From Hypanus sabinus (Eukaryota): a stretch of 64,000 nucleotides of DNA. Shown piece after piece: positions 41,301 to 47,300 of the stretch. The stretch spans positions 56,296,001-56,360,000 of the forward strand of contig NC_082714.1 in assembly GCF_030144855.1 (NCBI RefSeq), given 5' to 3'. Every line of letters begins with the position of its first letter. Positions within the stretch are counted from its first letter, which is position 1. The notes under the pieces are model-generated. The model had not been told where the DNA came from and did not search any database. It saw nothing but the letters and a program-made list of their open reading frames with translations. The translations under genes and the position numbers were made by a program.

Positions 41301-44300
41301 TCCCGGTCAAAAGCACTGTATTTGAGCTCGGGTGGTCGTAGGTGTTTGCTGAAAAACGCCAGGGGTTGCCAGCGACCCTCGATGAGTTGTTCCAGCACTC
41401 CACCAACTACCGTGTTGGATGCGTCCACTGTGAGGGCGGTAGGGACGTCTGTTCTGGGGTGCACTAGCATCGTGGCGTTTGCCAAGGCTTCTTTGGTTTC
41501 AATGAAAGCGGCGGCGGACTCCTCGTCCCAGGTAATGTCCTTGCCCTTACCCGACATCAGGGCGAACAGGGCATGATTCGGGCAGCTGAAGGGAGGAAGC
41601 GGTGGTAGAAATTCACCATACCCACGAATTCCTGAAGGCCTTTGATTGTGTTGGGATGGGGGAAATGGCGGACCGCGTCTACCTTGGCGGGCAGAGGGAC
41701 TGCACCGTCTTTAGTAATTCTGTGGCCCAGGAAGTCGAACTGGCATTTGGCCGGGTTGATTGTAAAGCCGTATTCACTCAGTTGGGCGTAGAGTTGACGG
41801 AGGTGGGACAGATGCTCCTGACGACTACTGTGAGGATGTCGTCCAAATAGATGAAAGCGGAGTCCAGGTCGCATCCCACCGCGTCCATTAACCGCTGAAA
41901 AGTCTGTGTGGCATTCTTTAGGCCGAACGGCATGCGGAGGAACTTGAAAAGGCCGAACGGCATGCGGAGGAACTTGAAAAGGCCGAACAGGGTGATGAGT
42001 GCCGTTTTGGGGACATCGTCTGGATGCTCAGGATTTGATTGTATCCTCGGACGAGGTCTACCTTGGAGAAGATCATTGCGCTGTGCAGGTTTGCTGCAAA
42101 GTCCTGAATGTGCGACACAGGGTAGCGGTCCTGTGTTGTAGCCTTGTTCAGCCTGCGGTAGTCTCCAGCCCCCTGTTGCTTTGGGCACCATGTGCAGGGG
42201 GAAGGCCCATGGGCTGTTGGAACGTCGTATGATCCCCAATTCCTCCATCCTCTTGAACTCCTTCGCCAGCCGGAGCCTGTCCAAGGGAAGCCTTCGAGCA
42301 CGGGTGTGGAGGGGTGGTCCCTGGGTCGGGATGTGGTGCTGTACGCCGTGTCTGGGCATGGCTGCCGTGAACTGCGGTGCCAGAGCCGATGGGAAATCCG
42401 CCAGGACTCTGGTGAAGTCGTTGTCGGACAGCGTGATGGAGTCTAGGTGTGGGGCCGGCAACTGGGCTTCACCCATGGAGAACGTTTGAAGGGTCTCGGC
42501 GTGGACCAGTCTCTTCCTTGGCAGGTCGACTAGTAGGCTGTGAGCTCACAAAAAATCCGCTCCCAGGAGCGGTTGGGCTACGGGGGCCAGTGTGAAGTCC
42601 CACGTGAACTGGCTGGAGCTGAACTGTAGCCGCACCGTACGGGTGCCGTAGGTGCTGCAGTTCGCGGCCCTCAGGGTGGGACCCGGTTCACTGTTGCGGG
42701 TGTCGTAACTCGTCGGAGGTAAGACGCTGATCTCGGTTCCGGTGTCGACCAAAAAGCGGCATCCCGACTGCTTGTCCCAGACATACAAGAGGCTATCCCA
42801 ATGGCCAGCTGCTGTAGCCATCAGAGGCGGCTGGCCCTGGCATTTCTCGGGAACTTGCAGGGTGGGCTACGGTGGTGGGCTTCTGCGCCCCACCGCTGGT
42901 GGTAGAAGCACCATTGTTCGTTTGCCTCCTCACCCGCCTCTGGGGTTAGCGGGCTCTGTGGCCGGGTCTGGTCTGGTTTGCTGCTGGGAGCGTGACCTGG
43001 TGATCTGCGTGACGGACGCCCCACTCTCCTTGGCTTCCCACAGCACGTCTGCTTGGGCTGCCACCTTCCAGGGGTCACTGAAATCCGTGTTGGACAGCAG
43101 CAGGGGTATGTCCTTGGGCAGCTGCTCCAGGAATGTCTGCTCAAACATGAGGCAGTGCTTGTGTCCTCCGGTCAGGGACAGCATCTCGTTCATCAAAGCC
43201 AACGGTGGCCTGTCCCCCAAACCATCCAGGTGCAGTAAGGTGCTCACGCCTTGAGAGTCCGAAAGTCCTTATGAGCAGGGCTTTGACTTCCGTGTATTTG
43301 CCGTCCACTGGGGGAGACTGTATGAACTCCTCAACCTGGGCCGCTGTCTCCTGGTCGAGGGAGCTCACCACGTAGTAGTAACGTGTGGCATCCGAGGTTA
43401 TCTGCCAAATGTGCAATTGGGTTGAGGTCGCGGCGTCCAGAAGCTTGGCAGTTTTAAAGAAACTGCATGAACAGATGTGGCGTTCATCTCCGGTCCAAAT
43501 ATCGTTTGGGCCGTCGGGGTCACCAGTTGTAGCAGTGTGCTACACGCAGCGCTGAAATAACGACACGTAGTCGGTGAGCAGCAGTTGCAAAAGAGGTTTA
43601 TTCAAACATCGTGGCCTCACTTTAAAGCCTTCCTGTTCCCACCCTCCCCGGGCGGGAATACTGTCGGGGGCGCGTATTCACAGTCCCGTCCTGCGCGCGG
43701 GCTTTTCCCCTTGCTGGTAAAGCAGCTTGGCGCACTCTTTGGGACCGGCCTCAATGCCAGCGTGCGCCACTTTGTGAGCCGGTTCGAGTGCGCTAGGAAG
43801 TGGGTCGCCACACTATCGTTCTTGTGTACATCTATTTTCACAATTGACATTGCACTTCAGGCACAGCCTACTTTGCTTCTGGAGTAGACCCATTTTTCCA
43901 AGTCTCACTTAATCTCTGGAATCCTTCACTCCACCATGCCACTGGTTTGCAGCTGGTAAGGAGTATTGTATTTCACTTGTGTGCCTGTTTATTCACACAT
44001 CGCTTGAAAGCCTTTGCCGTGAAGGAAAACCCTCGATTGGCATGTATGCAGGTGAGGGCGCCAGCGTATGGGACTGTGGAGTTTTGGAGTGCTGTGATGG
44101 TGGCGATCTCACTACAAGTTGTGGAGACAAACCACATGTGTCTCATACAAAGATCAATTATCAGAAGAATATACTTATTAGTTTTCTGCTAAGGTGGGTA
44201 ACCTTGGGATGCCAGGAAATAGGTCTATATAATCCATTTCTACACTTGCATCGGTCGGTGCAGTTGATTTTATAGGAGGTGGTCTTCCGACTGCTCTTTT

Positions 44301-47300
44301 ATTATATGCCAGGAATGAATTGTTTACAATCATTCAACATGTAGGGTCACTAGTATATATAGGATGGCTAATTTTGTTTGAGTGGTTTGTCCGTCACCAT
44401 GATTGTGTCCGATTCCTTGGTGGACTTCTTGAATCAGTGCTTCCCCTTGGTGGCGGGGGGTATTTGCTTGACTTTTTTAGGGTGGCAGACCCAAGCCTTA
44501 CCTTCACCATCAGCATCATATTTGTACTGCGTTGGAAATACCTTGAGATTGGCTTCAGTTGTATTCTTGGAAAATTCTTCAAACATCATCTTAGTTATTT
44601 TTTATTTGTTGCTTAGTTACTACCAAGACCCTGGTAGTATCCTTTACTACCCTTACTATACTGACAGCTTGTTTTGCAACTTTATTACTATAGCTGTGAG
44701 AGGCCTGTAGTATGTCCTGGAATGTGTAACATCAGTGCTAATGTTTGAGTCAGTAAGAATTCATAACTCAATTTGAAAGCAGTTTACCTTTGTGTTCTCT
44801 CCATCCAGTAGTTGACCAGATAGAAAGATCTTCCTACGGTATTCCTAAAATAATTAGTCAGTGCATATCAAGACTGGTTCTGTTGTCTTGTTTTAGACAC
44901 AATTCTAGGGTTTTAGCTTCTACAAATTGGGCGATATGATTCTCTAAAGGATGTGCTTGCAACTCGTGTGTTTCAAATGCAGTTTCCGATAACAATTTTC
45001 CTTTTATAATAAAGAGCAAGGATTATAATTGAGAGGATCCATCACTGTACCATATTGGAGAATAGTGCTCTAAAGGATGTCATGCTGTATTAGGTCGTAG
45101 AGAAGATGGTTCTGAATCTTTCATTACAGGTAAGGATTATAAGTCGTAGCTCTCAGGAACTTAGTCCCACTTTAAGGTGTTGTCTTGTAAAAGTATTTAC
45201 CATTCCCCATGACTAATTATGGTAGCTCTCCATTTTTTGGTAATTTGCTATTTGCTATCATTTTTTAATGTTGCAAATGTTGTGTAATAATTGGCTTGTC
45301 CCTTTGCAGTGGTCTTACTGCACTAGTGTATGGAATACCATAGTAAGACATCGTTGTAAGGCAGTAAATTTCTGTTCTATTTGGGTGAGATTATATGGTG
45401 TATGGAGCCTTGTGTTTCTTCTCCCTTACAGCAGTTTTTGAAGAAACACAAATTTGCATAACAGATTTTGTTGGGTCCTTGTTTGAAGATCTATTGTGTA
45501 CTGAACTGCATTAATCAATTTCTTTAGTCCTTCAATCCTCTTTGCTTCTCTGGTTTACAACTGTTGTATAATGTTTTTGACAATTGAGCATAGTCAGGTG
45601 TGAAAGCTCTAGCATAATTCAATAGGTCTGGGGCTGATTGTAAGGCTTTTGTGGTCTTTGGATAGCCTGCTTGAGTGACATCTTCCTGCTGTATGCCCGG
45701 AATGTCGTCTCCATACCCTGCTGCCCAAGGGAGGACTGCAGTGAGGAGGAGTCAGTGACCCACCTCTTTGCACACTGTGAGTTCGTGGAGAAGGTGTGGA
45801 GAAGGATGAAAGGGACAGTGTCGAGATTCATCCCCAGCAGCTGCATAACAGAGGACTCTCTGATCTATGGGCTGTTCCCGGAGATGCACACAGAGACCAA
45901 CTTCCGGTGCTGCTGGCAGATCATCAACTCGGTGAAAGACGCACTTTGGTCGCCCCAAAACTTGGTGGTCTACCAGCACACGGAGATGTCCATGAGAGAA
46001 TGCTGCTGACTTGCACATTCTTGGCTGCAGTAGTACGTGCTGAGGGATGCACTCAAACTCGGTGCAGCCACCGCAAGGGCCTGGTGGGGAAGGACCACAG
46101 TTCAGAGTTCTTCTCCTGTGGGAGTTGAGAGGTAGGGTGGCAGGGAGTTTACCCCTCAACAAGAGTATGTAAATATGAAATAACAGAGTGCCACCTGGGT
46201 GGCTAAAAGTGTGGGAATGTAAAGACTAATGGAAACATTTGTAAAGGATTGAGAGACATTGAATGGCTCATTGTACATAATTTTATTTTTGAACGAAGTA
46301 TATTTTGTTTAATAAAACCTTGTCTAAATTCAAGGCTTAAATCACATCCCTGATTGGTAATTGTCATATCTAGAAAATTTATTTTTGTGCAACAGAGTTT
46401 AGATTTTAAAATTTTAATTATGTAGCCTCTGTCTGTCACTTTCAATCAGTGGGTGTGAGCAGAAGCCATTGATCAGATCTATGCAAGATTTGTACATCTT
46501 GCTGTATCAAAACGCAGGGTCAAATTTTCTCAACAATGAGTTTTGTCAAATGGAAAGGCCTGTATCGTATATGTCAGATGAAGCATTTTGGATAGAGTTG
46601 GTGCTGAAATAGTCCTGTGCAATTTTTATTACATTAACATTATCAGCCTTCCCCTTTACACCTTGTTTTTCTTGAGCTGCAGGGAGGGGTTGGGCATTTG
46701 GGATGGACCCTAACCCTTTGTATATTTAGAGGGTGAAGAGTGAAGCAGGCCTCGTGGCATGTACTCATAATGTCGATGGGGCCTCTGAATGTTCCCTCTG
46801 TCCCGTAAGCAGTCTTGGTCAAAGACTTCCTTCCGCAAAGAAAGGGGCTGGAGCTAAGTGTTGTGGCCTATACCTCGTGTCTAGCCATCTAGGTAGTGGG
46901 TGCCTTTCAAATGGCAGCTGCTATTTAGAAAGCAAGCTTAGCAAACCTGAGATGGAAATTGATACCTGTCACAATCCAGCTTCTGTCAAGGCCATAATAA
47001 TTGAATTGCCAACAATAAAGGATGTAATAAGGCTTTTAATAGATCAAATATTCAAGGAGGCAGATGCAGAGAGGGTAAGGAAATAAAACGGCTTTCCAAA
47101 GGCTGGCACTAGATTGGATCGGTTGTATAGGAAGGATAACAGTAAGAATAAGCCCCAGTGTTGGACAGCAATGATGAACGGCTTATTGGCCACTCAGAGG
47201 ATGCTAGGAGTACAAAGGGAAAGACTTTTAAGGAAGAGTCAGCTCCTAGATGGTAGCAGGAGAGCAGTTTAGGTTTGGATCAGGATTCAGACTGGTGAGA

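Follow-up and report, generated by a model that had tools for sequence, protein, structure and literature searches.

What is the decayed retroelement that lies antisense in intron 1 of NDUFAB1 in the stingray Hypanus sabinus, and why does it lack the core of its reverse transcriptase (RT)? The element is part of a 64,000-nucleotide stretch of contig NC_082714.1 (positions 56,296,001 to 56,360,000 of the forward strand, NCBI RefSeq assembly GCF_030144855.1), hereafter the window, and an earlier note made from the letters alone had described it as a foamy-virus-like endogenous retrovirus (ERV). We confirm that it is a decayed fragment of an endogenous foamy virus, and show that the loss of its RT core is a feature inherited by a sub-family. 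Most copies of this virus fall into two reciprocal deletion classes, A and B, and the window copy belongs to class A. An RT-core deletion common to a sub-family, together with the reciprocal classes, is probably new; the virus itself is probably known in kind.

The Element in NDUFAB1 Intron 1 Is a Dead Foamy Virus Fragment

The minus strand of the window from 43843 to 46902 holds a dead internal foamy virus fragment, made up of the end of gag and a broken pol. All eight peptide stretches that the earlier note had likened to foamy Pol were present in the minus-strand frames where it had placed them, and on simian foamy Pol they are colinear, spanning residue 243 of RT to residue ~990 of integrase. 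RT residues 243-262, 340-366 and 384-416 lie at 46506-46447, 46430-46350 and 45661-45563, respectively, tether residues 493-508 at 45377-45330, RNase H residues 590-603 at 45070-45032 (633-644 and 678-694 were also placed), and integrase residues 963-976 at 43958-43917. The frameshift-aware alignment that the earlier note had proposed, made here against a profile of 12 natural foamy Pols from IMG/VR, scored 369 with 28% identity over 693 residues, compared with 51-78 for eight shuffled sequences and 54 for the opposite strand. An intact-looking Gypsy stretch in the window reached 540 against the same profile, and the score of 369 is therefore evidence of reality, not of kinship. A single frame of the window copy, read with stops as X and compared with solved structures, gave five matches, all five to foamy Pol (best E=1.4e-4), and Pfam found no relevant family in three frame reads of the element.

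Read in the viral direction (minus strand throughout), alignment to sister copies sets the upper limit of homology at 46902. The 3′ end of gag (46576..46902) was recognized with a gag-3′ probe of gag-bearing copies (313 vs. a background of ~30-45), and its boundary with pol is approximate. The start of pol (46502..46575) runs from the protease (PR) N-terminus, whose 5′ limit was set from foamy protease length, to the catalytic Asp motif, where comparison across copies places class-A junction 1. At this junction ∼600 bp of protease and RT N-terminus are absent, out of frame. Profile alignment and residue placement locate a remnant of the RT fingers (reference residues ∼243-267) at 46433..46501, and the end of the palm with the start of the thumb (residues ∼340-375) at 46320..46432. 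Between them, at 46432..46433, lies class-A junction 2, where 217 bp of the RT palm have been deleted between direct repeats of 9 nt. The thumb and the tether (a degenerate RNase H) occupy 45080..45684 and the RNase H, with approximate boundaries, 44600..45079, both by structure matches and profile alignment; the integrase N-terminal domain and catalytic core follow by profile alignment at 43843..44599, cut near residue 990.

The nested insert that the earlier note had set aside is real at 45685..46319, where the frameshift-aware alignment shows a large insertion. It is a later, non-viral, high-copy repeat, of a depth thousands-fold over its flanks, and contains a LINE-like zf-RVT fragment on the plus strand (E=0.005, below the cut-off). 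The window copy lacks the integrase C-terminal domain, env and the 3′ long terminal repeat (LTR). Nowhere in the window did a viral LTR, env or 5′ gag turn up, and past the abutting Gypsy element no viral continuation was found. A displaced 5′ half of the virus at 54.2-56.0 kb was rejected, that region being other repeats. The extent first given, 43813..46500, is corrected to an upper limit of 46902 and a lower limit near 43843. The window copy is functionless today; it is ordinary dead DNA.

The Family Is Nested within the Foamy Virus Clade

The degenerate connection domain followed by a second RNase H, which the earlier note had taken as established retroviral architecture, is present and colinear, but on its own it does not prove a retrovirus, because some Athila/Tat Gypsy elements also evolved a tether and a second RNase H (PMC9040795, in excerpt). 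The retroviral and foamy call rests instead on trees, the primer site and the Env match.

The window copy and two sister copies were scored against 66 single references, among which partial ones score lower for their length. With the window copy, the 10 mammalian foamy Pols gave 275-347 and P0005, a Logan contig, 309; the next best was 197, from a frog NYNRIN-like protein that is probably a lokiretrovirus, and 13 Gypsy-like references gave 59-119. All 10 mammalian foamy Pols scored above every Gypsy, gamma, epsilon and fish reference (the gamma, epsilon, delta and loki labels are a reading of motifs, hosts and tree position). An unguided, single-frame read of 330 residues from sister copy L123 gave 147 bits with marmoset foamy PR-RT vs. 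37 with the best non-foamy structure. Searching proteins with a read from a sister copy gave 344 candidates, none of which matched.

In a quick tree of 62 rows, built from profile-guided reads including that of the window copy and leaving out 12 of the 66 references and 5 of 13 reads for size, eight ray copies grouped together (support 100) beside P0005 (96), within a group of mammalian, spadefoot-toad and salamander sequences (93). Because profile-guided reads might lean foamy, the tree was repeated on RT plus tether with four unguided sister-copy reads (38 rows, mixture model). The foamy clade was recovered at 100/99, the ray copies, P0005, salamander and mammalian foamy viruses at 96/89, and the ray copies with P0005 at only 91/68; the elephant-shark (Callorhinchus) protein P0126 and the Coilia proteins fell outside the 96/89 group. 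The earlier note had named best matches and tree placement within Ty3/Gypsy as grounds for giving up its reading; the family falls in the foamy clade. That the element is ancient, retroviral and foamy and comes from a cartilaginous fish is borne out by the score comparisons, the trees and a PALB2 protein match (below), and it is nearer to true foamy viruses than the earlier note ventured.

P0005 (10,956 bases) has one open frame of 1687 residues, in which ∼520 residues precede PR, RT, RNase H, integrase and SH3, in that order. It scores like a mammalian foamy Pol against ray copies, lies beside them in the trees, and is a candidate for an intact foamy-like virus. If its Gag and Pol are fused, it would differ in this from known foamy viruses. 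A further set (P0024, P0028, P0117 and P0080) covers frog, Xenopus, coelacanth and turtle proteins annotated as NYNRIN-like or Gypsy-integrase-like. Those of frog, Xenopus and coelacanth form a basal retroviral group, probably lokiretroviruses, and the turtle "NYNRIN-like" protein groups apart from them with gamma and epsilon viruses, so that this annotation spans unrelated ERVs.

Sister Copies Retain Foamy Virus Anatomy

A search of the genome for fuller copies, as the earlier note had suggested, found sister copies with LTRs, gag and env-region DNA. The window pol DNA as probe gave 368 first-look candidates, of which 40 were scored (67-75% identity); matched 251-bp probes gave 62 candidates for the palm vs. 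158 for the thumb. The family is old and multicopy, with at least ∼150 internal candidates, and 70 copies were fetched with their flanks. An LTR probe gave 4237 first-look candidates, unverified beyond 40. Solo LTRs measure ∼1.05-1.15 kb, and the LTRs of fuller copies have an 8-bp terminal inverted repeat. Both ends were located in 15 of 30 loci, and a 4-bp target duplication (3-4 of 4 positions matching) was seen in 8 of 14 solo LTRs; such a duplication is a feature of foamy viruses, not exclusive to them.

Sister copies carry a tRNA-Lys-type primer site after a 2-nt spacer (mean of 4.9 mismatches in 15 vs. 11.7 in the control, n=20), although bases 16-18 differ from the foamy site; the site is absent from the window copy. 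The polypurine tract of fuller copies resembles the foamy one. A foamy Gag capsid profile matched upstream of pol (19.9, 10.9 and 6.1 bits) and foamy Env surface subunit (SU; region 307-412) after pol (20.5 and 12.2 bits), weakly and on the sense strand only. Genome-wide, Foamy_virus_ENV (PF03408) gave two matches, below the cut-off and both within the ray family. Frameshift-aware Gag and Env profile scores for single copies were too near the reverse-strand controls and were discarded. By estimate ∼4.2 kb separate the end of pol from the 3′ LTR, with ∼1.2 kb of shared DNA in the env-to-3′ LTR region beyond the needs of env; in foamy viruses the accessory genes tas and bet and an internal promoter lie between env and the 3′ LTR. 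About 11 of the 19 copies shown have a purine run at a matching position in integrase, different in sequence from the 3′ tract. A search over the 290 nt nearest the anchor turned up no in-frame start codon for Gag that is conserved.

Two Reciprocal Deletion Classes

The earlier note had reported that the RT YxDD core appeared deleted near 46440. The palm (residues ∼267-338, with the LPQG and YxDD motifs) is indeed missing at 46433/46432, but its loss was inherited by the whole sub-family and is not local decay. In the first 41 sequences (window included), 15 copies lacked the same 217 bp, with identical breakpoints, 23 had the palm and 3 were unclear. Gag was present in 14 of the 15 palm-deleted copies vs. 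4 of the 23 palm-bearing ones (Fisher p=5e-6), and the reverse was seen for the protease or RT N-terminus (0/15 vs. 22/23). Class A thus keeps gag and has two pol deletions in common, one of the protease body and RT N-terminus and the other of the RT palm, whereas class B keeps pol and has in common an in-frame deletion of ∼1.7 kb of gag; 19 of the 23 palm-bearing copies lacked gag.

A repeat of 8-9 nt marks the point where the class-B leader skips this ∼1.7 kb; the junction lies 3-4 codons ahead of the catalytic motif of the protease and is in frame in 12 of 14 measurable copies (18 examined). The palm-deletion breakpoints lie inside the 9-nt direct repeat and are not GT-AG. Splicing was rejected as the cause of the palm or gag deletion, since the 5′ break lacks a GT and the breakpoints instead carry repeats of 8-9 nt.

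A second sample of 30 copies, collected with the thumb probe, replicated the split. All nine palm-deleted copies had gag and lacked the protease; of 12 palm-bearing copies 10 were without gag (6 with the leader in view) and 2 had both. Among nine that could not be typed for the palm, three had gag and no protease. Of the 24 typed, ∼12 were A-type and ∼10 B-type, with 2 carrying both. Copies of full structure are rare (L033, L167). Env-region DNA is kept in most class-A and several class-B copies, many fetches being too short to judge.

Private deletions were also seen: L107 keeps gag and the RT palm but bears a protease deletion of its own, in L114 gag and most of env are gone, L118 is likewise among such copies, and L120 and L121 retain part of gag and part of pol. 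A third class-A lesion near residue 418 or 489 was rejected, both classes varying alike there; the apparent common frameshift near residue 418 occurs in A and B.

Age of the Burst and of the Locus

For 38 copies the DNA tree has the form of a star, read as one burst, and its tips have a median length of 0.15 changes per site. Ten LTR pairs differ by 0.22-0.40 (Kimura two-parameter, K2P), some over short alignments. At assumed rates of 0.5 and 1.5 per billion per year, given for catshark and jawless fish (PMC10699275, in excerpt), the burst would be ∼100-300 million years old.

The same locus was found in four runs under four other organism codes. Their listed non-repeat pieces differ at 1.6-2.4% of letters, and in two of the four there are contigs that bridge the junction of the nested insert. 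Therefore the insertion, its deletions and the nested insert predate the split from those genomes, a split roughly tenfold younger than the burst.

Genomic Neighborhood of the Window Copy

The placement antisense in intron 1 holds: NDUFAB1 lies on the plus strand, with coding exon 1 (transit peptide) at 38165..38326, recognized from its sequence and GT donor and named from the downstream exons at 51.0-53.0 kb. The next coding exon is at 51039..51128 (plus strand, acyl-carrier motifs, 5′ limit approximate), with more near 52140 and 52990.

A younger, non-viral Ty3/Gypsy LTR element (40557..43812, minus strand; LTR pair, RT_RNaseH Pfam matches) adjoins the truncated 3′ end of the virus. Its 4-nt flanks do not match one another, which suggests that a deletion here also took the 3′ end of the virus. 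This element and window positions 7079-10757 (plus strand) are two members of one Ty3/Gypsy family with long open frames.

Large PALB2 exons lie at 13306-18207 (plus strand), including a frame of 589 residues whose best matches are batoid proteins: it is 100% identical to one annotated as Hypanus sabinus, 85% to Mobula, 71% to Pristis and 43-49% to sharks. A long tandem array of a short unit at 61800-63750 has stop-free minus-strand frames of ∼400 residues.

Origin of the Two Classes

We consider it likely that a burst of a true foamy virus gave rise to two deleted genomes by repeat skipping, that these were amplified in trans, and that the window holds a stripped class-A copy. Deletion between direct repeats by template switching is well known. 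A true foamy virus would have entered the germ line of an ancestor of the stingray in a single burst, during which RT skipping between short direct repeats would have produced two defective genomes. Class A would have been left with gag and env after losing the body of the protease and both the N-terminus and the palm of RT; class B would have joined the Gag N-terminus in frame to the protease active-site region and retained RT, RNase H and integrase. Both would have kept the LTRs, primer site, polypurine tract and the 3′ half of pol, the site of foamy packaging signals, and both would have been packaged, reverse-transcribed and integrated by proteins made elsewhere. Amplification in trans is proposed because a genome that lacks RT or capsid has no means of copying itself. 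The simplest source of the proteins is complete virus, present in the same cells as viruses or proviruses, and a few copies of complete structure exist; A and B may perhaps have given Gag/Env and RT/integrase. The window copy would later have lost both ends, gained the repeat and decayed neutrally. Foamy Pol is made without Gag and packaged via RNA signals in pol, with cis-acting sequence II (CAS II) in the pol 3′ end (PMC3705302, in excerpt); this biology suits spread in trans, and both classes kept the CAS II-bearing pol 3′ end. Amplification of ERVs by complementation in trans is a reviewed concept (PMC8922424, in excerpt).

Several observations weigh against this account. The first 40 copies were picked with class-A and class-B probes, so that the 30-copy thumb sample is the fairer one, and the 5.25 kb fetched upstream can miss gag in interrupted copies. 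In the star-like tree neither A nor B is a clade. From thumb to integrase, break density per 100 codons is 3.14 in A and 3.41 in B, and no further class-A-specific lesion was found there. The Gag and Env matches are weak and come from just 2-3 of 40 copies, and Pfam Gag_spuma_N had no match in the whole genome. The trees were built without confirmed lokiretrovirus, coelacanth CoeEFV, caecilian, reptile and cartilaginous-fish endogenous foamy virus (CFEFV) sequences. The rates behind the age are borrowed from catshark and jawless fish and may not be those of rays.

It is unlikely that A and B formed a two-component virus, with A giving Gag and Env and B giving Pol from the Gag start via the in-frame join, so that no complete genome was needed. 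The lesions are reciprocal, the classes are about equally common, the class-B junction is in frame, and foamy Pol is normally packaged unfused to Gag, a division impossible for an orthoretrovirus. However, B lacks the first protease strands and A the rest, so that no class has a whole protease, which foamy infectivity requires; an in-frame join is expected by chance one time in three; and both genes are found together in L033 and L167. In addition, the tree does not resolve the classes as clades, and class-A pol shows no extra decay. Helper-driven spread is thus ranked first, above the two-component virus. We give very little credence to deletions that recurred independently after integration of complete copies at repeat hot spots. 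Repeats of 3-9 nt mark the breakpoints, the classes are not clades, and private deletions are common (L107, L114, L120), but breakpoints are identical within a few bases in 15 + 9 copies, and recurrence is largely refuted by the linkage of the two class-A deletions, which exclude the class-B one. The 38-copy tree, with one starred branch, also has 7 changes of class label vs. a shuffled mean of 11.5-11.7, labels being more clustered than in 498-499 of 500 shuffles, and the one contig spanning the deletion in another genome (X13 record 14) shows no gap relative to the window.

Reverse transcription of a spliced RNA, by which the Tas-deleted form of prototype foamy virus arose, is a less likely origin of class-A junction 1 than template switching, and a doubtful one. 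In protease-bearing copies the missing piece opens with GT (8 of 10) and closes with CAG (9 of 10), and the repeat there is just 3 nt; against this, the donor is weak, no pyrimidine tract is clear by eye, the AG is explained by the 3-nt repeat, and the other two junctions are not GT-AG. As to kinship, three other identities are highly improbable for the element: a lokiretrovirus, a foamy-like ERV of the teleost or elephant-shark type, and a Gypsy element. The top non-foamy score came from a probable lokiretrovirus, quick-tree support for the true-foamy group is moderate (93; 89), and partial elephant-shark and salamander references have lowered scores. The 66-reference scores, the L123 read, both trees, the foamy-type primer site and the Gag and Env matches all speak for a true foamy virus. 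A lokiretrovirus RT would be sister to those of all other retroviruses, and the family is nested in the foamy clade; the LPQG-type RT of sister copies, the colinear tether and RNase H, the low Gypsy scores and the trees speak against Ty3/Gypsy, and the position of P0126 and Coilia against the elephant-shark and teleost grouping.

Relation to Known Viruses and Significance

Wang, Chen and Cui (2023, J Virol 97:e01816-22, PMC9972966) place CFEFV near the root of vertebrate foamy viruses, by the title of their work. CFEFV is reported from sharks and rays, with a minimum age near 189 million years. Compared by title only, CFEFV is, like the stingray family, a true foamy lineage of cartilaginous fish, and the two are quite probably of the same kind. 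That the lineage is undescribed, as the earlier note had suggested, is not established, endogenous foamy viruses of cartilaginous fish being already in print; the surprise of the find is much reduced, because the family is most likely CFEFV-like. A literature search brought up neither a foamy ERV from a stingray nor an endogenous foamy virus with reciprocal deletion classes, the contents of the CFEFV paper lying outside its coverage.

Mammalian foamy viruses (structures 7KSE, 7O24) share with the stingray family the order and motifs of Pol and a primer site with a 2-nt spacer, and are similar in LTR start, polypurine tract, Gag capsid, Env SU and the ∼4.2 kb from pol to the 3′ LTR. The stingray family differs in having only ∼30% Pol identity to them and a central purine run that is no copy of the 3′ tract, and it is endogenous, dead and mostly deleted. 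HERV-H, IAP-1delta1 and ETn/MusD are ERVs amplified by complementation in trans, and in them, as in the stingray family, common deletions outnumber complete genomes; the stingray family differs in being foamy and in its two reciprocal classes of similar abundance, one of them gag-less but pol-bearing. CmiFLERV of the elephant shark (PMC5512871, in excerpt) and ERV-Spuma.0-Sca of the catshark (PMC10699275, in excerpt) are likewise foamy-clade ERVs of cartilaginous fish; the two papers put them with elements of frogs or ray-finned fish, in a position basal to the tetrapod group, and Callorhinchus P0126 stands outside the group that holds the ray copies. Lokiretroviruses also have a dual RNase H, with an RNase H related to that of foamy viruses, but cartilaginous fish are not among the hosts given in the excerpt of PMC7947760, and probable loki references group elsewhere in our trees.

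A review calls endogenous true foamy viruses extremely rare (PMC8922424, in excerpt). The root of the foamy viruses bears on the age of retroviruses, and at least ∼150 internal copies with many solo LTRs in one ray genome make a rich, datable record near that root. The weight of the finding lies in the two-class structure and the copy number, more than in the presence of a foamy ERV in a ray. That foamy Pol can be provided in trans is a laboratory fact, which the reciprocal classes bring into view, and make testable, in the fossil record. There is a small chance that a foamy virus persisted in the ancient ray germ line as a naturally two-component retrovirus, with capsid and envelope from one genome and Pol from the other in trans. 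If so, the classes would be fossil evidence that Pol was already packaged apart from Gag in the elasmobranch lineage, and that this mode of packaging lets a retrovirus split its genome.

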